Translations under genes and position numbers: made by a program
In this document: in pieces, positions 4,906-64,000 of the stretch
Position numbering within the stretch: the first letter of the stretch is position 1
How the letters are laid out: each line of letters starts with the position of its first letter
IMG/VR virus record: IMGVR_UViG_3300031998_002794
Span: 714-64,713 of that record
Origin: a virus
Taxonomy: Duplodnaviria; Caudoviricetes
Length of the DNA stretch: 64,000 bases
Strand: one strand, 5' to 3'
Notes under the pieces: model-generated
Told to the model about the DNA's origin: nothing
What the model saw: the letters and a program-made list of their open reading frames with translations, nothing else
The model's database searches: none

Positions 4906-5635
4906 TATAGATGAAGGATTGTTTGGCGGCAATAGCTACGACAAGTTTAAGAGTCAAGTAATTGCCACTTTAATCAAACGTTTCGGAATTAAGATCCCAG
5001 CTGGCATGAAGCGTGCTGAGGACTGGATAAGAGATTATTTCGTCGAGAAGTATTCCGTTTGGGACACTGTAATCGCTATGAAAGACAATTTCAGAGAGTA
5101 TGCAACAAACGAATCTACTGAGCTCGATGAAGCAGTCAAGACTTTGGAAGACGCTGGTCTTGTATGCGAAGTTTTCATGAAGGACGATAGAGGCAATGTA
5201 GCTCTTACTGATTTGGTTCAGAAGATCATTGAAAAAGCCGGTCTCGTCTATGACAACGAAGACGCTGTAACATCTGCTGCATACTACATCGCTGACTTCT
5301 ACTCCAAGCAGTCTATGCCAATCAATGGTATGGTGATGTGGGGTTCAAGAGACCTTCAGAAATTCAAGAGAATGTGTGACCAGTCAATTCAGACAGCAAA
5401 TTCAAGTGAAGAAATCAATGCATGCGAGTATAAGGCAGTAACCAATACCCGTTCTATTATGCTTGGCAACCCAGGCAGAAAGGCTCAGTGGATTGAAGAA
5501 ATCAAGGCAGAATATAAGGCTGCATCTGCAGACGCTGCTGAAAAGCGTCGTCAAGCATACCTTGCTTCTGACGAACATAAACACATGAATGACCCAGGTT
5601 GGCGTGGTCCGAATGGAACATGGTCAAACGACTAA
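4895..5635 (+). CDS. hypothetical with an internal copy of the shared leader
   Basis: 246 aa; internal ELDEAVKTLEDAGLVCE at aa 76-92. Confidence 0.7.
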   Translation: MASNIDEGLFGGNSYDKFKSQVIATLIKRFGIKIPAGMKRAEDWIRDYFVEKYSVWDTVIAMKDNFREYATNESTELDEAVKTLEDAGLVCEVFMKDDRGNVALTDLVQKIIEKAGLVYDNEDAVTSAAYYIADFYSKQSMPINGMVMWGSRDLQKFKRMCDQSIQTANSSEEINACEYKAVTNTRSIMLGNPGRKAQWIEEIKAEYKAASADAAEKRRQAYLASDEHKHMNDPGWRGPNGTWSND

Positions 5636-6510: not shown

Positions 6511-8994
6511 ATGATAACAAACATTATCAAGCGAGATGGTAGAAAGCGCAAGTTTAACGCTGACAAGATCTCGAGAGCTATAACTGCAGCATTTAATGAT
6601 TCTGGTGAAGCTTATGATTCTGCAGTACTTGATGACTTAGTGGACAAGGTAGTTGATAAACTTAACGAATCTGGAAACAAGACTGCAAAGGTAGAAGACA
6701 TCCAGAACACTATTGAACAGACTATTATGGAAAGCGGATTTACCAAGACCGCTAAGCACTATATCCTTTATCGTGAAGAAAGAAACCGTGTAAGAGATAC
6801 CAAATCATCTATCGTCAAGACAATTAAGGAGATTACTGAATCTGACATCAAGTCCTCAAATATCTTGAGAGACAATGCTAATGAATCAGGCGCTACTCCG
6901 GCTGGTGCATACGGCAAGATTGCTTCCGAGACGAATAAGATGTATAACCTGTTGAACAACATCAACAGAAAGTATGCTCAGGAACACAAAGACGGTTACA
7001 TTCATATTCACGACTTAAACCAATATAACCTTACATTCAACTGCTTGTTCGCTCCTGTCGGCAAACTCTTGAAGTCAGGTTTTGACAGTGGTACTGGTTT
7101 TCTTCGTGCACCGAAGTCAATTCAGACAGCAGCTGCTTTGACAGCAGTAATTTTGCAGTTGCAGTCTAATCAGCAGTATGGCGGTATTGCTGATGACAAC
7201 TTGGACTTTGATTTAGCACCGTTCGTCGACCTTTCTTTCAAGAAGAACTTGAAGAAGGAGATTGACCGTTTCTGCAAGTATGAAGGCAGACCAGACGGCG
7301 AAAAAGATATTCTTTATGCACACATTGAAGAATGCTCAATGAACTGGCCTTTGAATAAGCTCTATCAGTACTTCCCAGAATATGCTGTAGATGCTGCTTA
7401 TGACCAGACTGACGACGACACTCATCAGGCTATGGAAGGTCTTATTGGTAACTTGAACTCATTGCAGTCTCGTTCAGGTAACCAAGTTCCGTTTAGCTCA
7501 TTGAACTTCGGTCTTGATACATCAAACTGCGGACGAATGGTTTCAAAGAACTTGATTCGTTCACAGATGGAAGGTCTCGGCGACGGATTGACCGCTATCT
7601 TCCCAATCTTGATTTTCAAGTTGATGAAAGGCTATACAAAAGATGACCGTGACCCGAACTATGACTTGTATCTTTCGTCTATTGAATGTTTGGCTAGACG
7701 ATTCTATCCGAACTTCGTAAGCGTTGACTCATCATTCAACAAACCGTATGTCAAGTATGAAACACAGGAAATTGACTTGCACGGCGTTGGTAGCGTTGAA
7801 GTAAAGCAGCGCGGTGGTTCAACACTTTATGCCTTGAAAGTTGTTGATACTGACTTCTCTGAATGGATTCAGTATGAATATGATGTTGGTCAAGGTGACT
7901 ATTGGGAAGTAGTTGGAATTAAGGACACCAAGCTTCAGCTCCGTAAGCTCATTCCGAATACAACTGTATCCGCTATGGGTTGCAGAACTCGTGTTCTTGG
8001 CAACATCAACGGTGCAGAGCAAACAACTGGCCGTGGTAACTTTGCCTTCCACACAATTAACCTTCCACGCCTCGCTATTGAAGCACATATCGCTTGCGGT
8101 GACGAGACTGAAAGAATCAACAATTTCTTTGAGCGTCTTGATAACATTTTGAACGACACAAAGGGTTCGTTGCTTGACAGATTCTCTCTTATCTGTAACA
8201 AGACATACGAAAACTTCCCGTTCACTATGCAGCAGGGACTTTACCTTACTTCTGATGACAAGCCACATGAAGTCACCGACAAGATCGCAGAAGTAATGAA
8301 GCAGTCAACATTGTCTATTGGTTATGTCGGCGTTGCTGAAGCAATTACCTTGCTTACTGGCAAGACATACGGCGTTGACCACGAAGTTGACAAGTTGGCT
8401 CTCAACATCGTAAAGCGTATCCGCAAGTTTACTGACGAGTGCCAGAAAGAAACTCATTTCAACTGGTCATGCTTCGCTACTCCTGCTGAAGCAACTGCCG
8501 GTAGATTTGCTTGCATAGACAAGAACTTATTTGAGAAGGAAAAGAAGTTGCAGGACGTTGACCTTTACCGTATCTTCGGCAAAGGCTACTATACAAACTC
8601 CCACATGCTCGACTTCTCTATCAAGACAAGCCTTGCTAACAAGATTGCAGTTGAAGCTCCGTTCCACAAGATCACAAATGCGGGTCACATATTCTACTAC
8701 AAGATGAACGGTGACTTGACAAAGAACTTGCCGGCAGTAAAGGCTGTAATTGATGAAATGTATGAAGGAGATCTTGGTTACTTCACGGTAACTATGGACT
8801 CCGATGACTGCCTTGAATGTGGATATCATGGCATCATCAATGACTGTTGCCCTAAGTGCGGTTGCAAGAATGAAGACAAGTTCGTTCGTGTCCGTCGCAT
8901 CACAGGCTACTTGACAGGTTCACCTCGCAAGACTATCTTCAAGTCTTGGAACGACGCTAAACTTGCAGAGCTCAAGGACAGAGGCAACATCTAA
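6511..8994 (+). CDS. nrdD: anaerobic (class III) ribonucleoside-triphosphate reductase with ATP cone
   Basis: N-terminal IIKRDGR ATP cone, MGCRT catalytic Cys, GRGNFAFHTINLP, CxxC..CxxC Zn site, RRITGYL glycyl-radical motif. Confidence 0.97.
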   Translation: MITNIIKRDGRKRKFNADKISRAITAAFNDSGEAYDSAVLDDLVDKVVDKLNESGNKTAKVEDIQNTIEQTIMESGFTKTAKHYILYREERNRVRDTKSSIVKTIKEITESDIKSSNILRDNANESGATPAGAYGKIASETNKMYNLLNNINRKYAQEHKDGYIHIHDLNQYNLTFNCLFAPVGKLLKSGFDSGTGFLRAPKSIQTAAALTAVILQLQSNQQYGGIADDNLDFDLAPFVDLSFKKNLKKEIDRFCKYEGRPDGEKDILYAHIEECSMNWPLNKLYQYFPEYAVDAAYDQTDDDTHQAMEGLIGNLNSLQSRSGNQVPFSSLNFGLDTSNCGRMVSKNLIRSQMEGLGDGLTAIFPILIFKLMKGYTKDDRDPNYDLYLSSIECLARRFYPNFVSVDSSFNKPYVKYETQEIDLHGVGSVEVKQRGGSTLYALKVVDTDFSEWIQYEYDVGQGDYWEVVGIKDTKLQLRKLIPNTTVSAMGCRTRVLGNINGAEQTTGRGNFAFHTINLPRLAIEAHIACGDETERINNFFERLDNILNDTKGSLLDRFSLICNKTYENFPFTMQQGLYLTSDDKPHEVTDKIAEVMKQSTLSIGYVGVAEAITLLTGKTYGVDHEVDKLALNIVKRIRKFTDECQKETHFNWSCFATPAEATAGRFACIDKNLFEKEKKLQDVDLYRIFGKGYYTNSHMLDFSIKTSLANKIAVEAPFHKITNAGHIFYYKMNGDLTKNLPAVKAVIDEMYEGDLGYFTVTMDSDDCLECGYHGIINDCCPKCGCKNEDKFVRVRRITGYLTGSPRKTIFKSWNDAKLAELKDRGNI

Positions 8995-9515
8995 TGAATT
9001 ACGGACAGATTGACACTGAATCAGTGGTTGACGGAGACGGAATGAGGGTTACCCTCTTCGTTTCCGGCTGTCGTAATCACTGCAAAGGCTGCTTTAATCC
9101 TGCCACTTGGAACTTTGACTTCGGTAAAGAATTTACTCCTATTGAGGAGAATGAAATCTTTGAAGCACTGAAACCAAAGTACATTGACGGATTGTCAGTC
9201 GTTGGTGGCGAGCCCTTTGAAGAAGAAAATCAAAGGGACTTGCTTCCTTTCTTGAAGCGTTTTAAGGAAAAGTATCCTGATAAGACGTTATGGATCTTTA
9301 CAGGCTATGTCTATGATAAAGATCTTGTCCCTCTTGGAAAGAAATACATTCCAGGAGTTACTGATGAAATCGTCAAGATGGTTGATGTACTTGTTGATGG
9401 ACCTTTCATTCAGGAGCAGAGAAGCTTGGAATTGAAGTTCAGAGGCAGTGCTAACCAACGTCTTCTTGACCGTGAAACGATTCATTGGTTGCGTTTTGAT
9501 AAAGATGAGCAATAG
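8994..9515 (+). CDS. nrdG: anaerobic RNR activating enzyme (radical SAM)
   Basis: SVVDGDGMRVTLFVSGCRNHCKGCFN (CxxxCxxC), GGEP, FRGSANQR; coupled to nrdD by TAATG. Confidence 0.96.
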   Translation: MNYGQIDTESVVDGDGMRVTLFVSGCRNHCKGCFNPATWNFDFGKEFTPIEENEIFEALKPKYIDGLSVVGGEPFEEENQRDLLPFLKRFKEKYPDKTLWIFTGYVYDKDLVPLGKKYIPGVTDEIVKMVDVLVDGPFIQEQRSLELKFRGSANQRLLDRETIHWLRFDKDEQ

Positions 9516-9630: not shown

Positions 9631-11436
9631 ATGAAGTTATTAAAATACATCATCATCGCATTGGTGCTGCTTTGCTCAAGCGGATTTGCTGTGGGCCTTG
9701 CAGATGGAGCTGCCAAGTTCGTTGGCAACATCACTACTAACGGTCAGGTCCGTTCGGACTTTGGTCAGTACTGGAACCAAATCACTGCAGAGAATGAATG
9801 TAAGTGGGCGTCTATTGAAGGCAGCCGTGGAAATTATAACTGGCGTGGTTGTGACGCTGCTTATAATTGGGCAAAGCAGAATAACGCTCACTTCAAGTTT
9901 CATGCTCTCGTCTGGGGTTCTCAATATCCAAACTGGTTGAATGGACTTTCAGTTGACGAAACGAAGAAAGCAATTACAGCTTGGTTTGACGCAGTTAAGA
10001 ACCATTATCCTGATTTGGAAATGATTGACGTAGTTAATGAAGCCATCAAGTCAGGTGGTTCATATCACTCTGGATACGGTAACGGAAACAACATTATTGG
10101 TGCTCTCGGCGGAGACAATGGAAATTATGAATTCGTTGTTACTGCCTTTAAGATGGCTCGTGAACGATGGCCAGATGCTATCTTAATTTATAATGACTAT
10201 AATACTGTCCAGTGGCAGAAGAATGAAGGTATTGACCTCATCAATAAGATTAAGAAAGCTGGTGCTCCGGTAGACGCTTACGGACTTCAGGCACACGACA
10301 TGCAGAAGGCTGGTGGCGGTAACGGCGGTACTGGTGGTGGCGGTACCTGTTTGGACATTAATCAGTTGAAGTCCGCTATTGAAGAAATTTGGACAAAGAC
10401 ACAGATGCCAATGTTCATTTCAGAATATGATATTGCTTCTGACGATGACAATGACCAGAAGAACTGTTATTCTCAACAGATCTCATACTTTATGGAAAAT
10501 GAACATATCGCCGGCATTACTTTGTGGGGCTACATCTATGGCTCAACTTGGACTACTAACGGCAACTCCGGCATTATTAAGAATGGACAAGATCGTCCTG
10601 CTATGACATGGCTCAAACAGTACTTGGCAGAAAATAAAGGCGTGAACTCGACTGGTCTTCCAACAGGCGACGGCGTAACTATCGTTGAACCTGAACCTCA
10701 GAAACCTTTCAAGGGTAAGGCATTTGATTTGACTGCTCCTATTGAAGCGGAAGACTTTGACATCCCAGGAAAAGGCGCCGGTAATAATTCATATCTCGTA
10801 TCTGGTGATTGTGATGATGTATGGAACACAACCTATCGTTCTGGCACTTCTGTAAAGATTGGCGATAAGAATGGTGGAATGGTAATTGGATGTAATGCAA
10901 CAGGCAACTACTATCAGTACACAATTAAGGTTCCTGAAGCTGGTAACTACATTGTCTATGCTACCGTAGCCGCTGATGGCGAAGGCGCTATTCTGTTCAA
11001 AGTTGGCGACAAGGCAGTATCTGATACAATGAAGTTCACAGGCGACTCATGGTCTAAATTTGATAAGATTAAGGGACATGCAACCTTCAGCTCTGATGGT
11101 GAACAGATCTTGACCCTTGAAATTGCTCAGGGCTACATTGATGTTGACAACTTCGAGTTTGCAGTAACTGACTGTGCTCCAGGAGATGTAACTTGCGGTG
11201 GTCCATCATACAACTGTGATGCTTATCCTGATGATCCTATGTGCAAGACTGTTGACTTTGACTTCCGTCTCGCAGAACAGAAGGTACTTAAGCTTTGGTC
11301 TGCCTTTGACGCTAATGGGAAGTGGATGGGAAATGTATCTGCCTATACAGCAGATGACGCTATCCGTTTCATGAAGTTGAAACCGGGCCTCTATATCATC
11401 AAAGCAAACGGTAAGTGGCAGACAGTAATTAAGTAA
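9631..11436 (+). CDS. secreted GH10 endo-1,4-beta-xylanase with a CBM6-like module and a Fibrobacter-type C-terminal domain
   Basis: Signal peptide; NQITAENECKW, FHALVWGSQYP, DVVNE (acid/base Glu at 10039), YNDYN, GLQAH, ISEYD (nucleophile Glu at 10423), GITLWG; IEAEDFD-initiated beta-sandwich; C-terminal FDANGK..G.YIIK. Confidence 0.92.
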   Translation: MKLLKYIIIALVLLCSSGFAVGLADGAAKFVGNITTNGQVRSDFGQYWNQITAENECKWASIEGSRGNYNWRGCDAAYNWAKQNNAHFKFHALVWGSQYPNWLNGLSVDETKKAITAWFDAVKNHYPDLEMIDVVNEAIKSGGSYHSGYGNGNNIIGALGGDNGNYEFVVTAFKMARERWPDAILIYNDYNTVQWQKNEGIDLINKIKKAGAPVDAYGLQAHDMQKAGGGNGGTGGGGTCLDINQLKSAIEEIWTKTQMPMFISEYDIASDDDNDQKNCYSQQISYFMENEHIAGITLWGYIYGSTWTTNGNSGIIKNGQDRPAMTWLKQYLAENKGVNSTGLPTGDGVTIVEPEPQKPFKGKAFDLTAPIEAEDFDIPGKGAGNNSYLVSGDCDDVWNTTYRSGTSVKIGDKNGGMVIGCNATGNYYQYTIKVPEAGNYIVYATVAADGEGAILFKVGDKAVSDTMKFTGDSWSKFDKIKGHATFSSDGEQILTLEIAQGYIDVDNFEFAVTDCAPGDVTCGGPSYNCDAYPDDPMCKTVDFDFRLAEQKVLKLWSAFDANGKWMGNVSAYTADDAIRFMKLKPGLYIIKANGKWQTVIK

Positions 11437-11585: not shown

Positions 11586-14500
11586 ATGAAAAAGATAATT
11601 CTATACATCTTGGCTTTTGCGGCCGCCCTCTTCGCAGCTGAGGCAGACGTAAAACCACTTGTCTTCACAGGAGTCGCTGACCAGCAGGCTCAATACGAGT
11701 ACATGCTACAGTATAAGCTCTATGGCTACGAATACTTGAAGATCGGCCAGAATGACACCATTCCTGATAAGTCGGGATGGAACGGTTCTGAAAAAGAAAT
11801 TACAATGAACCATCAAGTAGTTCTTGGTGGACCAATCTTGACGCAAGGCGCTTTTACAGTCGGTAACGGTACTGACTTGAAGACTGGACCTGTCAGAGCG
11901 CAGTCAATGACGATGGGTAATGACAACGGTTCTAACTTTGCGGGCAACTATTGTGTAGCCGATGGAGTTTCAACTCAAATTTCCAACATCATCACTCGAA
12001 GCGAAGGCAAAGTATCTTGTGATTCAGTACCAGCTGCCCCGTCTGGGCTTCAGATGCCTACTCTCGTCTTCCCTGACACAACAGCAATGGAAATTACCGT
12101 GCCTGACCGTGGAAAGGTCTACATAGATATTCCCGACGAGCCAACCGTTGATATGTTTATTAAGTCTATCACAACAGGTACTGAAGACACATTGTATTTC
12201 CGTATGAAGAACAAGGGAACTCTTACTCGTGTATTCGTTGAAGGCTCTATTTCCTTCGGCAACCACACGGTAGTTCAGGTTGTGTATGCCTCACCTGATG
12301 GAGACAGCGTAATTACACAAGACAAGTTCCGTGGCAACCTCATGTTCTATACACAGGAAGACTTTAACATTCGTAACACTGACTATTCCAAGCTGCAAGG
12401 AACTTATATCTCCACAAAGAAGATTAACTTAATTTCAAACATTGACTTTGCTGGACAGTTGCTTGCTAATGAACTTGAGATTGGCGATAACTTCAGTGGT
12501 AAGAATTTCAGATTCGTTAAGTTCAACCCAGATACTCTTGACTTTCCTGAGTTGAATAAGCAAGGCGGCTTGAGAGAAAATGACAGCACAGTCATTATTC
12601 CGATTGAACTTAGTGATACATCAACTATTGAGGTATTCTTTACATACTGCTTTGATATGAAGGACGGAGTCACTGTTGAAGACTTCAACCAACCGCCATT
12701 CATTCCTGTATGTGGAGATACATCAATTACCACAAAGATTCCTATCGGTTCTAAGGCGCCAGTAGATACGATTAAGGTCAATGTAAAGGTAGATACTCTC
12801 GTAGAACCAAATGAATACTTGATTATGCACATTGACAGTATTAGTGGTGCGGTTTTGCCTAACGGCGAGACTTCAGGCGAGTTGAAGATTAAGATCATTG
12901 ATGCTAAGGCTGATACGAACAGAGCTCCGAAGTTCGCTACGGAAGATACTACTTTGTTCATTCCTGAAAACACAAAGCCAGGAATTATTGGAACTATTGC
13001 AGCGACTGACCCGAATGGCGACAAGTTGTCATACACCATTCTAGGAACGGTGCCATTCATAGTAGACAGCGTTGGCAATATAAGTTCTACAAGAGAGTTT
13101 GACTTTGAGAAGGAAAAGCAGTTCACATTCAAGTTGGTCGCTTCCGATGGTAAGTTAACTGACACTTGTAAGGTAACTGTTAAAGTAACTGATGTAAATG
13201 AGCCTGTTCATGCAAAGGACACAACCTTCAGCATAGATGAAGGTAAAGTCGGCGACCTAGGAAAGATAACAGGGGAGGACGAAGATGGAAAGCCTGTTAA
13301 ATTTACTGTCAATGATACTAATGCTTATCGCATCGATAGCACTGGGATACTTACCTTGGTAACTCCGTTTGATTACGAGAAACAGAAGACCGACACTGTG
13401 ACTGTATATGTTACTGATGGAACATTTACAGATTCTGCTATCGTAATCATCAACATTAAGAATGTGAACGGTAACCCTGAACTTCAACCAAATGACAGTT
13501 TGACTGTTCCTGAGAACTGCAAGAGCTGCATCGTTGGTATCATTACTGCAACTGACCCAGATAATGACCCAATTACCTATGATGTAATTCAGCAAGGATT
13601 TACGATTGACAGCAACGGCGTGTTGAAGTTGACTGACCCGCTTGACTTTGAAACAACACCTGAAGTAAAGATCACAATTCTTGCGAAGGATCCGAACGGT
13701 GGTGCAGATACTGCTATCTACGTCGTCAAGGTTACAGACATCAATGAGCCTGTTCATACAAAGGACACTACTTGTTCTGTAAAGGAGAATTACACAGGAA
13801 AGATCTGTAAGGTGACTGGTACTGATGAAGATAAGACAACTCCGACATTCATCATTTCTGACACAACTAATTATTCTATTGACTCAACAGGAACTATCAC
13901 TATCAAGAACCCGATTGACTATGAAAAGAAGACAAAGGACACTGTAAAGGTTATCGTCACTGACGGTGAATTTGCAGATACTGCGACTATCATCATACGA
14001 GTACTTGATGAGCCTGAAACAGTCGAGATTACAAAGTGGGACGATGAAAAGCCTAAGGACACTGTAAAGACTAACGATCCTGACCATCGCTTTGAATGGC
14101 AGGTATGCGAAGGCGACACTTGTAACGGTCACATCGAGACACCTCACATCAGAAAGGACACAACAATTAAGGTATGTAACGACAAGAAGACAGTATGCGA
14201 CTCTATCGTTGTTCTGTTCAATGACGCCCCTCCTGTGGTCACATTGACAAATGCGAAGAGCACAGACGCCTACATTGACTACATCACTATTGAGGAAGTT
14301 AAAGACGATAAGATCTACGTAAACAAGAAAGATAATCAGTTGACTGTGACTGTCAAGGACACTGTCCACAAGACAACGAAGTCCTTCCCAATTGACGTCA
14401 AGCTAGATACAGTCCATGTAAGTTCCAAGAACATCAAGGACTATTCATACTTGATTGACGAAACATTGGCGACATACACATCAATTGGTAATGGTAAGTT

Positions 14501-15767
14501 CGAGAAGAAGGAAGTTATCAAGGACGGCGATGTAGTTATTACATTGACTCAAATCGTTGATAAGCATCACGACAACTTGGACACTGTGCAGACCGTTACT
14601 TACACTGTCAAGCAGGATGGAAAGGAATTGACCATTTCTTATCAGACTGACAACTTGACAGGAACACGAGTTTCTGACTACAAGGTTGCATATAAGATTG
14701 ATTCTTGCACAACAGTTTCTTACTACTTGGACGACAATAAGAAGATCTCCAAGAATAAGGAAGGCAACATCGCTTATACTGTGACATACGACTATACCGA
14801 CGATTTCGGCAACAAGGCATCTTCAAAGGTTGACATTATCTTTGACGATATTCCGCCTAAGGTTCAGATCTTGTCGCCGACTGACTTCGAGAAATTCAAC
14901 TCTAACGCTGTAAACGTAAAGTGGACAGTAAATGGAGAGGTTCAAGATACCTTGACATTGCAGCGCCTCACTAAGGGCGTGAACCACGTCGTCAGACGCT
15001 ACGTTGATAAAGCCGGCAACGTCGCTACTGATACTGTGACTGTGATTATGAATGAAGCAAAGGACATTGACATTAGCCTCGTTCATCCAGTAACAGAAGT
15101 TGACCAAGACAAGGTTGACGAATGGTATAGCGACTCGCATAACAAGTATGATCCTAAGAAGCCTTACGTCATCAAGACAGTAGACCCTAAGAATGACACT
15201 TTGCCTGACGTTATCGGCGTTGGTTTCAAGGTTGACATTGCATTGCCTTCTGTCTCGCCGACTGGTGGTTTGGCAACACTTGATGATATCGTCAAGAACG
15301 GCCAGATTCCTGTTGATGACAAGGGACATATAGTTGGTGCTTCTACTAAGGGCATTCCTGTAGACCAGTATGTTGAAGAACATTGCACAGAAGACTTCAA
15401 GAAGGACTACAAGAAGCATGGTCTCAACATTCCATTGTATGATGTGACCTACAACATGCACTTGTGGATTTACACAACTCAAGCAAACTACGTAAATGAC
15501 TTCGTTGTAGAATATACATTGAACGACGAGGACAAGGCCACATCGGCTGGTACTGTTCAGATGGTCATTGACTGGCTCTCTGACAAGGATGGAAATGTAA
15601 AGGCTAAGAATCACCATTCACTTGGAACTTCTAGCTACATTACATCGCTTTACGCAAAGTCTGTCGCTAAGCATCGCTGCGACTACAATGAACAGAAGAA
15701 AGGCGACAAGACTGTAAAGAAGGATGAAACAATGAAGGTCTTCGGTTACAAGCGTCCGAAGAAATAA
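11586..15767 (+). CDS. secreted cadherin-repeat surface protein (Calx-beta-like, 4 cadherin repeats, Ig-like domain, C-terminal FGYKRP domain)
   Basis: Signal peptide MKKIILYILAFAAALFA; four ~90-aa repeats with PEN, DxD, D(F/Y)E and DxNEP Ca-binding motifs at 12918-14018; Ig-like DIPPKV..YVDKAGN. Confidence 0.85.
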   Translation: MKKIILYILAFAAALFAAEADVKPLVFTGVADQQAQYEYMLQYKLYGYEYLKIGQNDTIPDKSGWNGSEKEITMNHQVVLGGPILTQGAFTVGNGTDLKTGPVRAQSMTMGNDNGSNFAGNYCVADGVSTQISNIITRSEGKVSCDSVPAAPSGLQMPTLVFPDTTAMEITVPDRGKVYIDIPDEPTVDMFIKSITTGTEDTLYFRMKNKGTLTRVFVEGSISFGNHTVVQVVYASPDGDSVITQDKFRGNLMFYTQEDFNIRNTDYSKLQGTYISTKKINLISNIDFAGQLLANELEIGDNFSGKNFRFVKFNPDTLDFPELNKQGGLRENDSTVIIPIELSDTSTIEVFFTYCFDMKDGVTVEDFNQPPFIPVCGDTSITTKIPIGSKAPVDTIKVNVKVDTLVEPNEYLIMHIDSISGAVLPNGETSGELKIKIIDAKADTNRAPKFATEDTTLFIPENTKPGIIGTIAATDPNGDKLSYTILGTVPFIVDSVGNISSTREFDFEKEKQFTFKLVASDGKLTDTCKVTVKVTDVNEPVHAKDTTFSIDEGKVGDLGKITGEDEDGKPVKFTVNDTNAYRIDSTGILTLVTPFDYEKQKTDTVTVYVTDGTFTDSAIVIINIKNVNGNPELQPNDSLTVPENCKSCIVGIITATDPDNDPITYDVIQQGFTIDSNGVLKLTDPLDFETTPEVKITILAKDPNGGADTAIYVVKVTDINEPVHTKDTTCSVKENYTGKICKVTGTDEDKTTPTFIISDTTNYSIDSTGTITIKNPIDYEKKTKDTVKVIVTDGEFADTATIIIRVLDEPETVEITKWDDEKPKDTVKTNDPDHRFEWQVCEGDTCNGHIETPHIRKDTTIKVCNDKKTVCDSIVVLFNDAPPVVTLTNAKSTDAYIDYITIEEVKDDKIYVNKKDNQLTVTVKDTVHKTTKSFPIDVKLDTVHVSSKNIKDYSYLIDETLATYTSIGNGKFEKKEVIKDGDVVITLTQIVDKHHDNLDTVQTVTYTVKQDGKELTISYQTDNLTGTRVSDYKVAYKIDSCTTVSYYLDDNKKISKNKEGNIAYTVTYDYTDDFGNKASSKVDIIFDDIPPKVQILSPTDFEKFNSNAVNVKWTVNGEVQDTLTLQRLTKGVNHVVRRYVDKAGNVATDTVTVIMNEAKDIDISLVHPVTEVDQDKVDEWYSDSHNKYDPKKPYVIKTVDPKNDTLPDVIGVGFKVDIALPSVSPTGGLATLDDIVKNGQIPVDDKGHIVGASTKGIPVDQYVEEHCTEDFKKDYKKHGLNIPLYDVTYNMHLWIYTTQANYVNDFVVEYTLNDEDKATSAGTVQMVIDWLSDKDGNVKAKNHHSLGTSSYITSLYAKSVAKHRCDYNEQKKGDKTVKKDETMKVFGYKRPKK
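12918..14018 (+). repeat. four tandem cadherin-like repeats (protein level)
   Basis: Repeats 2 and 4 both start VH(A/T)KDTT and contain IDS(T)G and D(F/Y)EK; repeats 1 and 3 contain PEN..ATDP. Confidence 0.85.
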
Positions 15768-15833: not shown

Positions 15834-16586
15834 ATGGAATTAGTAGAAGCTTTGGAAACATTAAAATCTGCAGACTTGATTGCTGAATCATTGACAGCGA
15901 ACAGACGAAAGTTCTATGTAATGATTGACAAGTTGCTTGAACCTTTCGAGACTGACTCTTACTATTATGAAGAGCCGAACGACGCTATGGGCGAAGACGC
16001 TATCGTTCTTAAGCGTTCAATTCTTAAGAAGATTTCAAAAGAACAATTACAGCACATTGTTGATGTTTGTGGATATCAGATGTCTGTTCATGCCCCGAAG
16101 AACGGCAACGACATTTGGATAACACCAGTAAACGGTGATGAATTGCATGACGATAACTTTGTCTATGAAGACGGTTATCGTATTCTTTTCCATGTTAGCC
16201 CAGTCAAAGATCTTGACAAGAAAGGCATTCGTTGTAAGTCTCGCCCTACTGACAAAGAATTTGACGTTTATCATGGCCGTATTTACTGCATGATGACTGA
16301 CGACGATGTTGACCACGCAAGATCTATGGTCACTGCTGAACACAACAAGCACAAAGCACATCTATACACATATAAGATTAAAGTACCGAAAGGATACGAA
16401 ATCTATCCTGACCCGACTACTCCTGACGGTGTCTATTTGACAAATAACATACCGCCTCAATTCATTGAACGAATTGATGACTTTGACAATGACATTGACC
16501 ACTACATTGAAAATGAAGAAAAGAGACGGCATGACCTCGCTGCACGAGCAGCCAAGATAAATAATTTAGACGGTATTAAGCTCTAA
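15834..16586 (+). CDS. putative internal head protein with a His-type ADP-ribosyltransferase-like domain
   Basis: Leader MELVEALETLKSADLIAE; LFHVS..KGI..GRIY..YKIKVP..PDP..GVY..NIPPQFI pattern. Confidence 0.55.
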   Translation: MELVEALETLKSADLIAESLTANRRKFYVMIDKLLEPFETDSYYYEEPNDAMGEDAIVLKRSILKKISKEQLQHIVDVCGYQMSVHAPKNGNDIWITPVNGDELHDDNFVYEDGYRILFHVSPVKDLDKKGIRCKSRPTDKEFDVYHGRIYCMMTDDDVDHARSMVTAEHNKHKAHLYTYKIKVPKGYEIYPDPTTPDGVYLTNNIPPQFIERIDDFDNDIDHYIENEEKRRHDLAARAAKINNLDGIKL

Positions 16587-18580: not shown

Positions 18581-18775
18581 TGACTTCAAAAATCACAATT
18601 TTGCGGCGAAGTCCTAAAATTACTACTGAAAATTTCGTCAAAAAACGTCATTTTATTACACATTTTGACGATTTTCGTCTGAGATTCCCACGAAATCTCC
18701 CAAAGTGGGTAATTGCCAATATATCATCAAAACCGACGAAAATAAGTGTAATATAAATACTAACGGAGAAAGTAT

Positions 18776-19672
18776 ATGTTTAAGAGAAATGAAAACCTCA
18801 GAGCTGCCGGTGAGCCAGTCGCTATGACTGCCGAACAGTTGCAAGAATACTTGAAATGTAAAAGAAGTGTTTTCTATTTTGCGAACTACTTCACAATTCG
18901 TGCTGCTGACGGCGACCACCCAATTCAGTTGAGAGAATACCAACAGCGTTTGGTAAAGTCAATTATCACAAAAGATCCTGACAAGAATAACCGAATCATT
19001 ATGATGGGTCGTCAGTCAGGTAAGACAACTATCGCTACCCTCTATTTGACGTGGTATGCGCTGTTCCACCGTTCAAAGACTATCGCTATTCTGGCTAACA
19101 AGGCTGAACAGGCTGATGAAATTATGCTTCGTATTCAGGAAGCATACATGGCCTTGCCTTTGTGGTTGCAGCAAGGAATCGTGAAGTGGAATGCTGGTGA
19201 AATGATTTTGGAGAACAAATGCAGAATGTTCTCCGCAGCATCTTCATCTTCGTCTATTCGTGGTAAGACCGTTGACATTGAACTCGTGGACGAGTTTGCT
19301 CACTTGGACAACAACGTTGCTGACTCATTCATGATGTCAGTTTTCCCTACCCAAGCTTCTAGACCTGACTCAATGCTTTTGCTTATCAGTACTCCTAACG
19401 GCATGAACCACTTCTACGACATTTGGCAAAAGGCTAAGTCTGGTCGTAATACATTCATTCCTTGTAAAGTCCAGTGGTATGAAATTGAAGGTCGTGACGA
19501 AAAGTTCAAAGAACGAGTTATTCGTGACAACGGTATTAAGTATTTCATGCAGGAATTTGCTTGCTTGACTCCAGACCAAAAGATTACGCTTAAAGACGAT
19601 AACGGCAATATCAGAACATTAACGATTGGCGAAGCGTATCAGTGGATGCGAGATTGCGGTGAGCTGGAATAA
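18776..19672 (+). CDS. terL: terminase large subunit N-terminal ATPase half fused to a split-intein N fragment
   Basis: LREYQ, GRQSGKTT (Walker A), SIRGK, LVDEFAH (Walker B), ISTPNGMNHFY; extein ends YFMQEFA; no nuclease domain. Confidence 0.95.
   Translation: MFKRNENLRAAGEPVAMTAEQLQEYLKCKRSVFYFANYFTIRAADGDHPIQLREYQQRLVKSIITKDPDKNNRIIMMGRQSGKTTIATLYLTWYALFHRSKTIAILANKAEQADEIMLRIQEAYMALPLWLQQGIVKWNAGEMILENKCRMFSAASSSSSIRGKTVDIELVDEFAHLDNNVADSFMMSVFPTQASRPDSMLLLISTPNGMNHFYDIWQKAKSGRNTFIPCKVQWYEIEGRDEKFKERVIRDNGIKYFMQEFACLTPDQKITLKDDNGNIRTLTIGEAYQWMRDCGELE
19562..19669 (+). other. atypical short split-intein N fragment (36 aa)
   Basis: CLTPDQKITLKDDNGNIRTLTIGEAYQWMRDCGELE begins with Cys1 at the QEF(A/E)|CEF site and matches the intein block A pattern. 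Confidence 0.85.
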
Positions 19673-19679
19673 ATAAAAT

Positions 19680-20000
19680 ATGGAAAACATAACCTACCGA
19701 ACAAACCTGCTTGAAACAGTCAATGTGGACAACATAGTGCAGAAAGATATGGGCTCTATGGATTTTGGCGATTTTGACTTTGGCGACGTTCGTTGGTATA
19801 GATGCTCATTCATGGATGTCGGAAGACCAGATAGAATCTCGAAGATCATTTATGATACGACTAACTACTGGCACTTCCTCATGTGGTTCAACGGAATTAG
19901 CGACTGCTGGAATGACATTCGTGAAAACATGATGATTAAGTACCCCGACATCAATTTGGTTAGAGAAGCATTTAAGCTCTACCGTAAGAAGGAGAAGTAA
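19680..20000 (+). CDS. baseplate wedge gp53-like / LysM-like protein
   Basis: RPDRISKIIYDTTNYWHFLMWFNGISD resembles the gp53 RP..A..Y....W..L..N.I.D motif. Confidence 0.65.
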   Translation: MENITYRTNLLETVNVDNIVQKDMGSMDFGDFDFGDVRWYRCSFMDVGRPDRISKIIYDTTNYWHFLMWFNGISDCWNDIRENMMIKYPDINLVREAFKLYRKKEK

Positions 20001-20354
20001 ATGGAACAGGAACTTAAAGAAGCACTTGAAACACTTGATAGTGCAGGTCTTATCGCTGAAGCTAGTGGATGGACTGCTCAAGATGTGGTCGATGAACTGT
20101 ATAGAAAATTTGACCCTGACTTTGGTGGCCTCAACGGATGGTCTTGTAATGTAGGACCTAACAACACAGTTTTCGTTTATCATAAAGACTATACATACAA
20201 AGTTTCAATAAAGCCTTCTAAACAGACTGTTGAAATTAAGATCTATGCTGGAAAGGCTCAGTTCACTGGAAAAGTTTTTGACTTCATTGAGTTTGGCACA
20301 TTTAAAGACTTTATGCAGTACATTATTAAATACATTCGTTCATGGGGAAAATAA
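20001..20354 (+). CDS. hypothetical, putative internal head protein
   Basis: Leader MEQELKEALETLDSAGLIAE. Confidence 0.7.
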   Translation: MEQELKEALETLDSAGLIAEASGWTAQDVVDELYRKFDPDFGGLNGWSCNVGPNNTVFVYHKDYTYKVSIKPSKQTVEIKIYAGKAQFTGKVFDFIEFGTFKDFMQYIIKYIRSWGK

Positions 20355-20356
20355 AA

Positions 20357-20692
20357 ATGGAATTGAATGAAGCATTAGAAACACTTGAGCAGAATGATCT
20401 CATTCCTATGAATGAGAATGAATTGTCCGATTACTTGATGGATAAAGTCTACAGAACTGCTGAAGAAATTTACGCCCGAGAGATTGACGAAAATGTTCCC
20501 GTTCTCGATGGTTCTAACCAGCCTTCTCGTGAATACTTGGAGCGTTTTGATTATCTATCTGACAATTTAAAAAATGCGGTTAAAAGGGCGTCTACAGCCT
20601 TGTATAATGACCTAAAGTCAGAAGGAATAGATATTAACGTAGAACACATACAGCATGAAATCTATGCTGCTTTGAAATTATACAGCAAATAA
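20357..20692 (+). CDS. hypothetical, putative internal head protein
   Basis: Leader MELNEALETLEQNDLIPMNE; start moved from 20342 to this Met. Confidence 0.7.
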   Translation: MELNEALETLEQNDLIPMNENELSDYLMDKVYRTAEEIYAREIDENVPVLDGSNQPSREYLERFDYLSDNLKNAVKRASTALYNDLKSEGIDINVEHIQHEIYAALKLYSK

Positions 20693-20718
20693 ATACAATA
20701 ACATAAAGGAGAATAATC

Positions 20719-21126
20719 ATGAGAGGAGAAGTTAACAAAGATTACATCCGTGGCGCTTTGAAGTTCTTGCGTGAAGATGTAGAGGACGAAGTTCCTACCT
20801 CTATTGATGATTCTGGTGTACCTGCTGACGACGTTCCTCCTGAGACAGAAGAAGGCGAAGAATGCGAAATGGTAGACTGCCCGGACTGTGGCGGTACCGG
20901 AGTCACAACTGACGAGGACGGAAACGAAGTTACATGCGAGACTTGTGGCGGCGAAGGATGCGTCTGTTTGGAAGATGCTGAATTTGACTTTGACCCAAGC
21001 ACCGGCGTTTGCCCTTGCTGCGGTTGCAAGTTGAATCTCATTGAGCCGACTGAAGACGGATTGGCTGGTGAAGAGGATTTGGGCGGTGATGATATCACAC
21101 CTGATGACCTTCCTGCAGAAATCTAA
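20719..21126 (+). CDS. acidic protein with a DnaJ-type CxxCxGxG zinc finger
   Basis: CPDCGGTG and CETCGGEG repeats plus CPCCGC; AAGGAG RBS. Confidence 0.7.
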   Translation: MRGEVNKDYIRGALKFLREDVEDEVPTSIDDSGVPADDVPPETEEGEECEMVDCPDCGGTGVTTDEDGNEVTCETCGGEGCVCLEDAEFDFDPSTGVCPCCGCKLNLIEPTEDGLAGEEDLGGDDITPDDLPAEI

Positions 21127-21150
21127 TCCATTCTTACATCGATCTTGAAG

Positions 21151-21181
21151 GCTACGGAATAAAATCCGTAGCTTTCTTTTT
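21151..21181 (+). terminator. intrinsic terminator
   Basis: GCTACGGA-ataaaa-TCCGTAGC followed by TTTCTTTT. Confidence 0.85.
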
Positions 21182-21219
21182 ATGCAAAAACTTTTTTATT
21201 ATTTACCCAAACAAAATTT

Positions 21220-21510
21220 TTAGCCGTATCCTCGGAACGAACAGCAACCCAATGCGAGTATCGGTAGAGGGACGCCATTGCCAGCTATGATGTAGGTAGC
21301 TCACAAAGGGATGAAATTACTACAAGCGAAGTGCAGACTTACAACCTGCACAATTAGCCGCCATTAGCGATAAAGGATGTAGTCGGAATACAGGATGACC
21401 GCTCCGTAAGCCTTTATGTAAGTCTACTTACAAAGTCATACAGTTATACAGATGTAAGAAAAAAGACTTTGACAGTAAGTTTCCTGGATAGGCTTACTGT
21501 CTCCAGTTAC
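21220..21510. ncRNA. candidate structured noncoding RNA or cis element
   Basis: ORF-free, with several stems: 21283-21301, 21331-21351, 21370-21417, 21431-21471, 21471-21501; family not recognised. Confidence 0.35.
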
Positions 21511-21580
21511 CAGATACAGAAAAAAGGAAATTTGACCGGAAGTTACCTTCTAAATAAATAAAATAGAGGTAAAATGTCAA

Positions 21581-22222
21581 ATGGCCAGCACTTCTATAAG
21601 ATCTATTTGGAATAACCCGTATTACCGTAACTACAAGCCCATTCCTAAGTGGGCGTTTGTGGTTGACTTCGGTAGTTTCATTTTGCATAACGACCCTGCT
21701 ATTCAGCATAATGGTCTTATTGATTCATATAAAGACATACTTAGCCAAGCACTTGTGAATGTCGTGTGGGGCAAGAGAGAAACTTCTATCGTCAAGACAT
21801 ACTATGCTGGCGTAGAGGCTAACTGTCCAGGACGAGTTCAAAATACGGGTGAATTGAACATTACATTTAATGATGACCAAGAAATGAGAATTAGTAAGTG
21901 CCTTGATGAAATTTTCAACGGCGAGTGCTCGAATGACGAGTACTTTGAAGGAAATGGCGCTTATATTGGTAATGTGAAGAGCGGATTCAATAAAGTAGAC
22001 CGTTCTATTACTGTTCATATTCTTAAGCCGCAGACTGTAATGCAGTCTGAAATAGTCGCCCCAGAATATCAAGAGGCTGGCTCGGTTACTTTCCATAACT
22101 GCATTCTTACCGGCATTAATGAAGAAGAATTTAGCTACGACAATCATGACGATATCTTGCAGAGAACCGCAAAGATTTCCTATGACTATATGATTGACAA
22201 CAGAAATAAGAAGGTTGGATAA
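21581..22222 (+). CDS. tail tube (gp19-fold) paralogue
   Basis: PIPKWAFVVDF..YYAG..CPGR..GELNITFND..FHNC..FSYD pattern. Confidence 0.6.
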   Translation: MASTSIRSIWNNPYYRNYKPIPKWAFVVDFGSFILHNDPAIQHNGLIDSYKDILSQALVNVVWGKRETSIVKTYYAGVEANCPGRVQNTGELNITFNDDQEMRISKCLDEIFNGECSNDEYFEGNGAYIGNVKSGFNKVDRSITVHILKPQTVMQSEIVAPEYQEAGSVTFHNCILTGINEEEFSYDNHDDILQRTAKISYDYMIDNRNKKVG

Positions 22223-59959: not shown

Positions 59960-60568
59960 ATGAGTTTTGCTACACACATGGCTAAATACTTGGTTGTGTC
60001 AGACAACCCGCCTTTAGATTTTTATCTACAGGCAACAACGAATGCACTAAATGACTACATGGCTGAGCTTGAGTCTATAATGACAGTGCCGCACTTATAC
60101 ATCAACGGCACTTACATTATTCCTGGCTCGCCTCCAGTCACAATCCCTCTTGTTAATCATCCTGTTGGTTTTTGGCGAAATAATCATATAAGATTTACGC
60201 TAAGTGAAGTGAAAGCTGCGATGTGGTGCGGAAATCCCGCAATGTCCTACATCAATTTGTTTACTCTTATCGGTCAAAAGATAAGTCTGAATTTTAATCG
60301 TCTATCGGCTATGCCTATCATCAATGGCCCAGACGCTCCTGTAGTTCTGAACACGGCTCACTTTGCTGCAATAGGATTGGAATTTTTCAATAAGCTCCAG
60401 ATATTGGGCAAAGTATTGACACCAAAAATGACATACCAGTATGAGAGCTTTTACATCAAAAAGGCAATTAAGTTAATCTTGCCTATGCCTTCCGCTCTTG
60501 CTGGCTTCTGCAGTTATGGCGGACCGTTCACAGGCACTATAGGAGGATCCCTTGCTCGAGCAACCTAA
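59960..60568 (+). CDS. hypothetical protein
   Basis: 202-aa ORF after an AATAAATA motif. Confidence 0.7.
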   Translation: MSFATHMAKYLVVSDNPPLDFYLQATTNALNDYMAELESIMTVPHLYINGTYIIPGSPPVTIPLVNHPVGFWRNNHIRFTLSEVKAAMWCGNPAMSYINLFTLIGQKISLNFNRLSAMPIINGPDAPVVLNTAHFAAIGLEFFNKLQILGKVLTPKMTYQYESFYIKKAIKLILPMPSALAGFCSYGGPFTGTIGGSLARAT

Positions 60569-61442
60569 CTATCTCGAAATTCCAATGACAGACCTTCCAT
60601 CGAGTGGTCTGATGTATGGTAGAAATGCCAAAGTTGAAGGACGTTTTCTCAACGTAGGCGATGTAAAGTTTCTTTCATTGCTTACACCTGAAAACGCATC
60701 TGATATCATCAACGCTTTGTTGCGTCGTTGTTTCAGATTTACAAACTTGAGTCTTGACTCATTGCTTCTCTGCGACCGCACCTATCTTATCTTCTGGTTG
60801 AGAGCTAACTCTTATACACAGGACGGTGGATATAAGATAAACATCAAGGAGTGCAGTCATTGTGGAAAGCAGTTTGTTTCACAGATGTACATTGATGAAC
60901 TCAAGACGCTTCATTTGAAGGAAAGACCAAGCACAGTCATTCTTCCGCATGCTAAGTGGCGTTTGGAAATAAAGATGCCTCGTGTTGAAGACTTGCGCAT
61001 TACTGATGAAGACAAAGATCTTGAACTTGTCTGCCGTATGGTCAATGCTGGTACACAGGATCCTAAGAGCTTAATCATGCAGCTTGACGCAAATGACTAC
61101 GTATTCCTTCTTGACTACTGCAAACAGTTCAAGGCTGGATTTGATATGAACGTAGAACTTGAGTGCCCGCATTGTCACGGAACCCATACAGTTGAACTTC
61201 AACTTACAGAAGACTCGCTGTTTGCTGCACATGAACTCAAGGACATTATCAGAATGACAACGCTCATCACCAAGCATACGAACGTCCAGATACCTGACTA
61301 CATGCCTTGGCCTGAACTTGAAATCTTGCATGACATTACAGACGATATCATTAAGGAAGAAAACGAAGAAAACGCTAAGGCGGAAGCAAAGGCTAAAGCA
61401 AAGGCATCTTCGCAGGCTGCTGCACACGGCGTCCACATCTAA
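60552..61442 (+). CDS. second gp26-like baseplate hub assembly protein
   Basis: TTG start after AGGAGG; DLPSSG..Y..L.CDR.YL.FWLRANSY..CxxCG..CxxC; paralogous to 41595. Confidence 0.65.
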   Translation: MLEQPNYLEIPMTDLPSSGLMYGRNAKVEGRFLNVGDVKFLSLLTPENASDIINALLRRCFRFTNLSLDSLLLCDRTYLIFWLRANSYTQDGGYKINIKECSHCGKQFVSQMYIDELKTLHLKERPSTVILPHAKWRLEIKMPRVEDLRITDEDKDLELVCRMVNAGTQDPKSLIMQLDANDYVFLLDYCKQFKAGFDMNVELECPHCHGTHTVELQLTEDSLFAAHELKDIIRMTTLITKHTNVQIPDYMPWPELEILHDITDDIIKEENEENAKAEAKAKAKASSQAAAHGVHI

Positions 61443-61464
61443 TAAAGACTAACAGAGAAAATTA

Positions 61465-61494
61465 TTAGGATTCTTGATGGATCCTAATTTTTTA
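61465..61494 (+). terminator. intrinsic terminator
   Basis: TTAGGAT..ATCCTAA followed by a T run. Confidence 0.6.
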
Positions 61495-61532
61495 GTTATA
61501 TTTTAACTATAAACATTTGCGTTGAGGAAAAC

Positions 61533-62135
61533 ATGGCACAGTATGTAAACAATAAAAGATTAAAGGAAGTGTTGAAGTTATACAACACTATGAACATAAA
61601 TGATACAGGTGACTGGTGCCCAGAATACTTAGTGCGTCAAGAAAAGAAATATCTTCTTGGAAAGATGTCAAAGGATGACTGGGAGCAGTGTAAGGAATTC
61701 ATTCATAAGCGAGTCAAAGCGATTGAAGAACTTCAAGAACGTTATGCGAAGTTCACGCCTGAAGAACGAAGGGCATTTGACAAAGAGTTTGACAAGATTA
61801 AGAATGAATTGTGCGATATGATTGTTCTGATGGCTATCGGACGCATCAATTCTTTTGGCCTCCGAAATCAGCTCAAGAATCCCGATGATATACAAGATAT
61901 CCAACAAGACGCAGTCATCAACGCATTCCGCTACCTAAATCGTTTTGATGAGAACAGAGGTACTTCTGCTTTTGCTTACGTTACCCAGCAGATTACCAAC
62001 AGCATCGTTCTCAACCTTAAGAAAATCAAAGACCACGAAAATACCTATCTTTCAGGTTGTGATTGGTTTGATAACATCAACACTGTTGACGATCCACATG
62101 ACGGCGTCAGCGGCTTAGCAAATTTCATAGAATAG
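61533..62135 (+). CDS. gp55: late-transcription sigma factor (gp55-like)
   Basis: QYVNNK, D..QDAVINAFRYLNRFDE..SAFAYVTQ..N. Confidence 0.85.
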   Translation: MAQYVNNKRLKEVLKLYNTMNINDTGDWCPEYLVRQEKKYLLGKMSKDDWEQCKEFIHKRVKAIEELQERYAKFTPEERRAFDKEFDKIKNELCDMIVLMAIGRINSFGLRNQLKNPDDIQDIQQDAVINAFRYLNRFDENRGTSAFAYVTQQITNSIVLNLKKIKDHENTYLSGCDWFDNINTVDDPHDGVSGLANFIE

Positions 62136-62143
62136 GAGTAAAC

Positions 62144-62665
62144 ATGAAGAACATTAAAGTCAAAGCGTCTCTTTTCGAAATTCAGGCAGTCTACGAATGG
62201 CTCAGAGCTAATTTCGCAAATACGACACTTCACCCAGAAGTAGCATTGATGATCTATCACAACATCAACTTGCTCTCTAAGCCTTATGAACAGATTCTTA
62301 AGGGACTATACAACGAAAACAACGACCCGCAGTTTAAGGAATACACCGATAAGATGCGTGCTCTTTATATGCAGTATGTTGACCGTGACGAGCAGGCCAA
62401 GCCTAAGCTCGATGAAAGAGGCAACCCGTTGATTACCGAAATGACTGTTGAGTTTGCTGAAGCAAGAGCTAAACTTGACAAGGAATACGATGAACTCAAC
62501 AAGAAGTTGCTCAAGAAGAATGAAGCAAACTTCAACTACTTGAACCAGCTTGTTGACATTGAAATCGTAACAATTCCGTGGGAACGATTGAGCGAAATTG
62601 GTCAAGGCCTTCCGCCACTCATGATTGGGTTCATCTCAAAGGAACCTGTTCCTGAAAAGAAGTAA
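62144..62665 (+). CDS. hypothetical protein
   Basis: 173-aa ORF with AGGAG RBS. Confidence 0.75.
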   Translation: MKNIKVKASLFEIQAVYEWLRANFANTTLHPEVALMIYHNINLLSKPYEQILKGLYNENNDPQFKEYTDKMRALYMQYVDRDEQAKPKLDERGNPLITEMTVEFAEARAKLDKEYDELNKKLLKKNEANFNYLNQLVDIEIVTIPWERLSEIGQGLPPLMIGFISKEPVPEKK

Positions 62666-62682
62666 AATTATTTCTTTAGGCC

Positions 62683-62722
62683 AAATAAAAACCGAGGTGA
62701 AGAACCTCGGTTATTTTATTTT
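62683..62722. terminator. bidirectional terminator between convergent genes
   Basis: AAATAAAA-ACCGAGG-tgaagaa-CCTCGGT-TATTTTATTTT. Confidence 0.85.
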
Positions 62723-63978
62723 GTAAGGAATGTGAACGTTGACTTACTGTTAAGGTGACTTGTTCCAAGACCAGTAAGGTTACCGTTTCTATTTCCACTT
62801 GAGTCAATGCGTCCAGTGGACTGTGTGTCAGATACGGTATAAAGTTCACCTTTGTCATTACGAAGAACTGTAATGATGTGACCAGCTTCGCCGGCGCCTT
62901 TCTTACCATCATAATCAATGATAATCTTATCGCCTTCCTTCAACTTACCGCTCTTCATAGCAGCAGTAATCTGATTGTTGAGAGCTGCCAAGTCACCGCC
63001 GAATGTCTTAGTCTCTTGAGCCTTATAACCAAGTTTCTTCCAAGTATCAACAGAACCAGCTGCGTTAGGCGTTACTGAATAAAGTTTAGCATCTTGATGA
63101 ACGATTGCTTCAAGAAGCATGTTACCAGCCTGACACATACCGTCTGTATGAATACCCGATGCACCGACAATACCCATTCTAACAAGAGCATCTGAAACAT
63201 CAGAGTAGTCATTGATGTTGACGCCTTCATCTTTGAGTCGCTTAATGATATCATTGATGTTCTTTGTTCTAGCTGCTTCACCGTTCTGTGTGAGTTCACG
63301 AACACGGTTTCTACCAGTACCAATGTCAGGTACTGTATAGTCAATGTCAAAGGTCTTTTCAACTCTTGTCTTATCAGCGACTGCAAGCAACTGTCTGCCT
63401 GTCGCAGAATAATCATCTTGTCTTACTGTATTTGCTCCAACCAACGAATTCTTTACTTTGCTGAGCTTTGCTTTCAACTGTTCATCATCAACAGCAAAAT
63501 CTTCACTGATTGCTTTGACGATAAAGTTCATTGTGATGCTTACTACTGAAGGACCACCTGTTCTTGCGAACTGTGGTTCATCATAGTCCAGAAGTTCAAC
63601 CCAATAGCATCTGCCCTTGAGAATCTTATACATCATGTTGTCATATTCACGAACGATGACTGCCAAACGCAACGGAGTGCTGTTGAAGCTAAGTGCTGCT
63701 ATATCGTCAGCGAACTTCGTGACAAACATATCATCTGTTTCTTCAAATGTGATAGACAATGAACGAGCGGTAATATCCCAAACTGGAATTGTGAATGAGC
63801 CGTTACCATAATAGATAGCGCCTTCGCTTGTATTGCCTTCTGCATCCGTGAACTTTACAGAACGAACTGCATACTTCAACTTTTCAGGCAGATTGCCGTC
63901 GCCTTTCGCAAAATCCACAACGAATCTAAAAGGAAGTTGTGGAAGCGTATGAAAGAATTTCTTAACTGCTAATCCCAT
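62716..63978 (-). CDS. tail-tube-fold (gp19/gp54-like) protein fused to a CHAP/NlpC-P60-like C-terminal domain
   Basis: N-terminal PFRFVVDF..LSITFEE..YDEP; C-terminal GMC...GY...GDKIII..GHI. Confidence 0.6.
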   Translation of the reverse strand: MGLAVKKFFHTLPQLPFRFVVDFAKGDGNLPEKLKYAVRSVKFTDAEGNTSEGAIYYGNGSFTIPVWDITARSLSITFEETDDMFVTKFADDIAALSFNSTPLRLAVIVREYDNMMYKILKGRCYWVELLDYDEPQFARTGGPSVVSITMNFIVKAISEDFAVDDEQLKAKLSKVKNSLVGANTVRQDDYSATGRQLLAVADKTRVEKTFDIDYTVPDIGTGRNRVRELTQNGEAARTKNINDIIKRLKDEGVNINDYSDVSDALVRMGIVGASGIHTDGMCQAGNMLLEAIVHQDAKLYSVTPNAAGSVDTWKKLGYKAQETKTFGGDLAALNNQITAAMKSGKLKEGDKIIIDYDGKKGAGEAGHIITVLRNDKGELYTVSDTQSTGRIDSSGNRNGNLTGLGTSHLNSKSTFTFLTK

Positions 63979-64000
63979 CTTATTCCTTTGTGTATTCGTC

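Follow-up and report, generated by a model that had tools for sequence, protein, structure and literature searches.

A large terminase gene probably split by an atypical intein, with its two halves about 50 kb apart, in a T4-like jumbo phage of apparent rumen origin

A T4-type large terminase (TerL) gene that stops at the hinge between its ATPase and nuclease domains raises the question of where the rest of the packaging motor is encoded, and of how the two parts become one protein. Such a gene lies in the 64,000-nucleotide stretch of viral DNA analysed here (the window; positions 714 to 64,713 of IMG/VR record IMGVR_UViG_3300031998_002794). The open reading frame, at 18776..19672 on the plus strand, encodes 298 aa. 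Residues 1-262 (18776..19561, +) make up the N-extein, a T4 gp17-type packaging ATPase domain that ends at the hinge motif QEFA, and the remaining 36 aa (19562..19669, +) correspond to the N-terminal fragment (IntN) of an atypically split intein, which comprises block A only and has Cys263 as intein residue 1. The TAA stop codon (19670..19672, +) marks the natural split point of the intein. Rereading of the sequence confirmed the ending given in a preliminary description of this DNA, with YFMQEFA followed by the tail and the stop.

The identity of the ATPase half is well supported. Pfam Terminase_6N covers residues 74-264 (E 1.3e-18) and matches only this protein in the contig, cyanomyophage gp17 is approximately 43% identical over residues 5-263, and the A2 profile of split N-halves matches the T4 gp17 structures 3ezk, 2o0h and 3cpe with E values of 2e-81 to 2e-79. 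The gene has a GGAGA ribosome-binding site (18765-18769, +) and, 17 nt upstream of its start codon, the T4 late-promoter-like motif TATAAATA (18752..18759, +). The window contains 10 copies of this octamer, none of them on the minus strand, against 2.1 expected (0 of 100 shuffles reached 10), and it may function as a late promoter.

A truncated terL might result from misassembly of, or a frameshift in, a gene carrying a contiguous cis-intein, or it might be the dead 5' remnant left in a defective phage, and the contig, a 64,713-b fragment that CheckV rates as about 17% complete, does show a truncated terL when taken alone. Recurrence of the product argues against both. An identical 298-aa protein is called on 11 contigs, the places listed for it representing six samples (two ENA, three JGI and one Logan), indicating that the stop codon is real and not an assembly error; the frameshift or misassembly that the preliminary description had named as one way in which its reading could fail is contradicted by the same observation. 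The truncated form with its tail is shared by 36 of 47 related loci in IMG/VR, none of which has a C-half within 10 kb; the C-half is present within that distance at the 11 others, which are more distant and have a contiguous terL. In addition, the ORF that begins downstream at 19680 lies in another reading frame, is conserved and is unrelated to terL, the partner gene described below is equipped with a start codon, a ribosome-binding site and a promoter-like motif of its own, and three relatives (G001, G002 and G003) each carry exactly one of each half. An artefact or a decayed gene thus has very little probability left and can be considered effectively refuted.

A frameshifted cis-intein and a pseudogene were accordingly rejected, and so was readthrough into the next ORF, which is read in another frame and belongs to a conserved gene with no relation to terL. 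The next gene itself (19680-20000, +; 106 aa) had been described as gp53-like and not a homing endonuclease. The second half of that description stands, as no endonuclease family matches it, but the first does not: it has no Pfam match, and its only hit is phrog_15542, labelled "tail sheath" (E 1.2e-10; profile of 110 positions). The gene is too small to encode a real sheath, which makes the label doubtful. The gp53-like gene (PF12322) of this phage is located near window 60.5-61.4 kb.

The 36-aa tail had been assigned to the short N-fragments of the AceL-TerL, GOS-TerL and Cat type of split intein, and family profiles, which match both Cat chains (PDB 6DSL) and cover both fragments end to end, bear this assignment out. 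Positions 262-294 of the A2 profile align with residues 1-32 of CatN (6DSL chain A, 33 aa; E 0.0029), in register with Cys263. The block A-like motif of the tail is kept among 22 split N-halves, in which Gln259 and Glu260 never vary and conservation of Cys263 is 90% or higher, some relatives having Ser or Thr at the Cys1 position. Contiguous cis-inteins at the same site in four relatives (P0006, P0021, P0041 and P0053) open with the same motif and end in (S)HN, followed by C-x-F-(I/L/V)-G-S. Intein-less homologs (P0002, P0018, P0019 and P0079) run from QE(F/Y)x straight into x-x-F-x-G-(S/G), in agreement with the earlier statement that T4-like TerL continues from QEF. into CEF(L)G. The fragment therefore has the features of its class, namely a T4-type TerL host (a Terminase_6N N-half and a Terminase_6C partner), insertion at the ATPase-nuclease hinge and a short IntN (about 25-37 aa) with block A only and a Cys/Ser start. 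The extein context of AceL, GOS and Cat, which we take to be EFE before the intein Cys and CEFL after the terminal Asn, places them at the same hinge.

Recognition of the intein rests on these family profiles because searches with single sequences gave no significant intein match. Against the PDB, the 36-aa tail by itself returned no significant intein and a spurious TALE-repeat match, the intein part of the partner protein P0155 reached CatC at a non-significant E of 0.38, and that of G001 produced spurious WD40-repeat matches from one short motif. On the partner proteins, Pfam Intein_splicing remained below threshold.

The preliminary description had noted the absence of an ORF combining an intein C-part (IntC) with the nuclease domain in the 18.7 kb upstream or 44 kb downstream of the truncated gene, and this absence extends to the whole 64,713-b contig. 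The Terminase_6C profile returned nothing at E<=10, a profile of 37 IntC-TerL-C proteins (A1) had no match, and tblastn with P0155 retrieved only a 10-residue chance match, the positive control, L057, being recovered at 100% identity. Given that the contig holds about 17% of the genome, absence from it says little about the genome.

The search that had been proposed, for an IntC ending in (H)N followed by C-x-F and a Terminase_6C domain, succeeded in a near-identical strain and in G001-G003, upholding the earlier view that the partner is encoded far away. The strain is represented by a Logan contig (L057; SRR17418358) that shares 97.4% DNA identity with window 59973-62717 and 95% with 63480-64000 and runs beyond the window end. 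Its P0155 gene (L057:7097-8203; minus strand in window orientation; 368 aa) lies past the window end, at 5.9-7.0 kb beyond base 64000; about 50.2 kb separate it from the TerL-N stop, and it encodes a 111-aa IntC ending NHN, followed by CSFLGS and the 257-aa nuclease domain. The gene has its own start codon and ribosome-binding site, and TATAAATA at L057:7063-7070, 26 nt upstream of the ATG. P0155 comes from another sample and from a strain 95-97% identical, and is the presumed partner of exactly this IntN.

The partner family shows the complementary set of intein features. Positions 1-106 of A1 align with residues 17-117 of CatC (6dsl_B; E 1.6e-11), with the N-terminal LT-x-GF motif, the block B His and the terminal (H)N-C junction all lined up. 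Weaker matches were obtained to the gp41-1 intein (4e-7), to VidaL (1.4e-3) and to DnaX and DnaE inteins, and the extein part of A1 matches the gp17 nuclease domain at approximately 1e-41. P0155, from the 95-97% identical strain, accordingly presents the long IntC of the class (about 104-122 aa), with blocks B/F/G, a terminal Asn, a +1 Cys and fusion to the nuclease.

The partner is missing from the window because the contig ends about 6 kb short of its gene. The window ends 44,328 b past the TerL-N stop, as does, by its listed coordinates, a JGI contig from another sample (Ga0400026_0000227), and the break common to both falls 22 b upstream of the start of an NlpC/P60 gene (L057:14120). Window and L057 diverge at 62.7-63.5 kb, beside the window end; a strain-variable stretch there probably breaks assemblies, which would explain why the contig stops before the partner gene. 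Two ENA contigs of 92,293 b (ERZ27257204) and 85,236 b (ERZ27256849) encode the identical TerL-N and probably carry both halves. When metagenome contigs were searched for exact copies of the final 39 bases of the window, nothing was returned, and a related-loci search with the single G001 C-half recovered only itself; P0155 was reached by way of homologous proteins and the contigs encoding them.

These results also bear on a repair at the RNA level. In T4-like jumbo gut phages terL is often split by a group I intron (PMC12880540), and the present gene could be the first exon of such an arrangement, as in the Jug phages, with the second exon nearby. Against this stand the absence of any Rfam intron family in the window and in a permissive scan of 19400-21700, the absence of a group I intron or other Rfam family directly after the TerL-N stop, and the absence of nuclease-domain coding sequence from the contig. 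Neither an intron RNA after the first exon nor a second exon downstream on the same strand was found; instead, the tail represents block A of an intein, whereas intein blocks open the partner, on the opposite strand. The probability of an intron-split gene is vanishingly small, and we regard this explanation, too, as effectively refuted.

The layout of the two halves was compared across relatives. The closest, G001, has a TerL-N 79% identical to that of the window and lies on a 184,671-b contig that is collinear with the window from about 0.6 to 63.7 kb. Its TerL-N gene (116556-117449, +) is separated by 46.5 kb from an IntC-nuclease gene (163953-165089, -; 378 aa), and the window end corresponds to approximately 158.7 kb of G001, roughly 5 kb short of that gene. 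G001, G002 and G003 each have a single Terminase_6N and a single Terminase_6C match, 46.5-52 kb apart and on opposite strands, so that the split gene is the only terL seen on these partial genomes (31-54% complete). The halves are convergent in this phage and in G001. Those of G002 and G003 are instead divergent, at a distance of 50-52 kb, with different genes in between. In the outgroup with an intact terL (P0002, L067), terL is followed by a gp5-like hub gene; in this phage the hub gene follows the C-half, and the tube and gp13 homologs are elsewhere. We infer that a rearrangement broke the gene within the intein and parted the halves, which were shuffled further at a later stage.

An N-terminal motif of the type E-A-L-E-T-L-x-x-A-G-L-I opens otherwise unrelated ORFs at 15840-15881, 20013-20054 and 20363-20404 and occurs internally at 5123-5164, and a gene beside the G001 C-half opens with a similar E-A-L-E-T-L-type motif.

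Taken together, we consider it highly probable that this phage encodes a two-gene large terminase, one gene specifying the ATPase with its 36-aa IntN and the other, about 50 kb away, an IntC-nuclease partner, the products of which are joined by trans-splicing. The first polypeptide would comprise the gp17-type ATPase (262 aa) and an IntN of a class-1 intein of the AceL-TerL/GOS-TerL/Cat family, and the second, whose gene is on the other strand about 50 kb further downstream, the 111-aa IntC and the 257-aa nuclease. Both genes carry TATAAATA and a strong ribosome-binding site and hence are probably expressed together late in infection. The short IntN would then dock into the nearly complete IntC to form the HINT fold, in which Cys263, the block B His, the terminal Asn and the +1 Cys would carry out protein trans-splicing, joining ...QEFA to CSFLGS... 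in a contiguous 519-aa TerL. Co-expression, fragment association and splicing are all steps that this model presumes. The predicted product, with the junction QEFA-CSFLGSS, resembles the intein-less P0002 protein (524 aa; QEYA-CNFAGSS), and the tryptic junction peptide of the spliced protein would be YFMQEFA-CSFLGSSETLISGECLDK.

Trans-splicing to the 519-aa product is judged likely, on sequence grounds, because the residues that would perform it are conserved. In the A1 alignment of C-halves, His45 (block B) and the terminal Asn111 never vary, and Cys112, at position +1, shows at least 90% conservation, as Cys1 does among the N-halves. The alternative is a non-covalent, two-subunit terminase in which the intein fragments are kept only as a dimerisation module and do not splice. 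Intein fragments could physically associate and yet not be ligated, the layout varying between lineages implies that the halves have long been unlinked, and some relatives lack the penultimate His or have Ser/Thr at Cys1. Residues needed only for the chemistry would nevertheless be expected to drift in a mere docking module, and all of them are kept (His and Asn without exception, the +1 Cys and Cys1 at 90% or above), which favours retained chemistry; the closest characterised homologs, moreover, do splice. Docking without ligation is for these reasons an improbable explanation. In G002 and G003 the penultimate intein residue is Tyr and not His, and thus the chemistry may differ across the clade within which trans-splicing is proposed.

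The phage apparently comes from the rumen, as judged from an Rfam match and from gene content. A full-length cow-rumen-2 RNA (RF02947) is found at 21325-21430 (+; 102 bits against a gathering threshold of 66, E 1.5e-18), within the non-coding interval 21181-21560 and 1.65 kb past TerL-N, and is conserved at the syntenic place in three related phage contigs (L002:13658-13763, L006:12768-12874 and L052:3917-4023). The match places this motif in T4-like jumbo phages, backs a rumen origin and accounts for the hairpin-rich block noted earlier. A NrdG-type radical-SAM activase is encoded at window 8994-9515 (+; Fer4_12, E 1e-46), and the gene table of a contig that carries the identical gene lists NrdD upstream of it; an anaerobic ribonucleotide reductase fits an anaerobic host. 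Beside nrdG, a 601-aa protein (window 9631-11436, +) combines a GH10 xylanase (E 1.4e-55) with a CBM6 domain (E 1e-9) and is probably an auxiliary fibre-degrading enzyme; its gene is preceded by TATAAATA at 9607. A 1393-aa cadherin/Big_9-repeat protein is encoded at window 11586-15767 (+).

If trans-splicing does take place, the sole packaging motor of a widespread clade of large T4-like phages is the product of two genes separated by about 50 kb. In these genomes, automated annotation will report terL as truncated or absent if it fails to recognise both parts. The two fragments would also represent a natural, atypically split Cys1/Cys+1 pair (36 + 111 aa), probably from a 39 °C habitat, and this pair and roughly 40 related clusters are candidates to be screened for fast splicing at 37 °C; AceL-TerL, which has been characterised, is cold-adapted. 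Our understanding of how such inteins work is unchanged by the finding. A more far-reaching proposal is that the rumen-type T4-like jumbo clade depends obligately on trans-splicing for packaging, that the halves have been unlinked long enough to shuffle independently and that the split has acquired a function that goes beyond selfish persistence. We regard this as unlikely; were it correct, the split may act as a late-stage assembly checkpoint, and failure of cross-splicing with the IntN or IntC of a co-infecting relative would constitute an incompatibility barrier limiting productive recombination between lineages.

Split terminases of this kind are common. When the 150 top-ranking cluster representatives (clusters at 50% identity) were sorted roughly by motif, approximately 41 were assigned to the split type, ending 27-60 aa past the hinge, at least 7 to the cis-intein type and at least 58 to the intein-less type, leaving 44 unsorted. 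The split architecture is therefore present in roughly a quarter of the nearest TerL clusters and is common in metagenomes. At E<=1e-20, the C-half search yielded 125 proteins, the majority of which measure 340-400 aa. The preliminary description had presented the locus as a candidate new split-intein pair; the sequence pair is indeed distinct, but its kind has been known since 2009 and is common in metagenomes.

Linkage of the halves is not required for such a system, since in cyanobacteria the split DnaE intein rejoins by trans-splicing an essential enzyme encoded by two distant genes. The DnaE intein is cut at the canonical site, which leaves IntN long and IntC short, and serves a cellular replicase, whereas the intein described here is found in a phage packaging motor. 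The Jug jumbo gut phages (PMC12880540) resemble this phage in being T4-like, jumbo, gut-dwelling and endowed with a fragmented terL, but their fragments are adjacent, co-transcribed and repaired at the RNA level, whereas here the genes are unlinked and rejoining would occur at the protein level.

The first description of a terminase intein broken here dates from 2009, among the fractured genes of Dassa et al. (PMC2677866), in which one gp17 terminase locus is split at the same unusual point and its C-part, of 122 aa, holds all motifs except N1; several members have since been characterised (PMC11766414). The present locus shares with those fractured genes a phage terminase split by an intein and a C-part with all motifs except N1, but it lacks their arrangement of adjacent halves with a free-standing homing endonuclease gene between them. 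Its closest counterparts are AceL-TerL, GOS-TerL, Cat (PDB 6DSL) and VidaL (PDB 6VGV), with which it has in common the T4-type TerL host, the hinge reading QE(F/Y)x before the intein and C-x-F-(L)-G-S after it, the unusual split point after block A and Cys1/Cys+1 chemistry. In-vitro trans-splicing has been reported for AceL-TerL, GOS-TerL and Cat, the last of these being an engineered consensus of the other two, and the fragment sizes of the AceL/GOS/Cat/VidaL group (25/104, 37/115 and 30/104 aa) compare with 36 and 111 aa here (PMC11766414). The system described here differs from this group in its sequence, in its T4-like jumbo clade, with the cow-rumen RNA motif, an anaerobic ribonucleotide reductase and a xylanase, and in the placement of its halves about 50 kb apart on opposite strands. 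The architecture is thus already known; what is unusual is the separation of approximately 50 kb, the opposite strands and the clade, probably one of rumen jumbo phages, in which it occurs.
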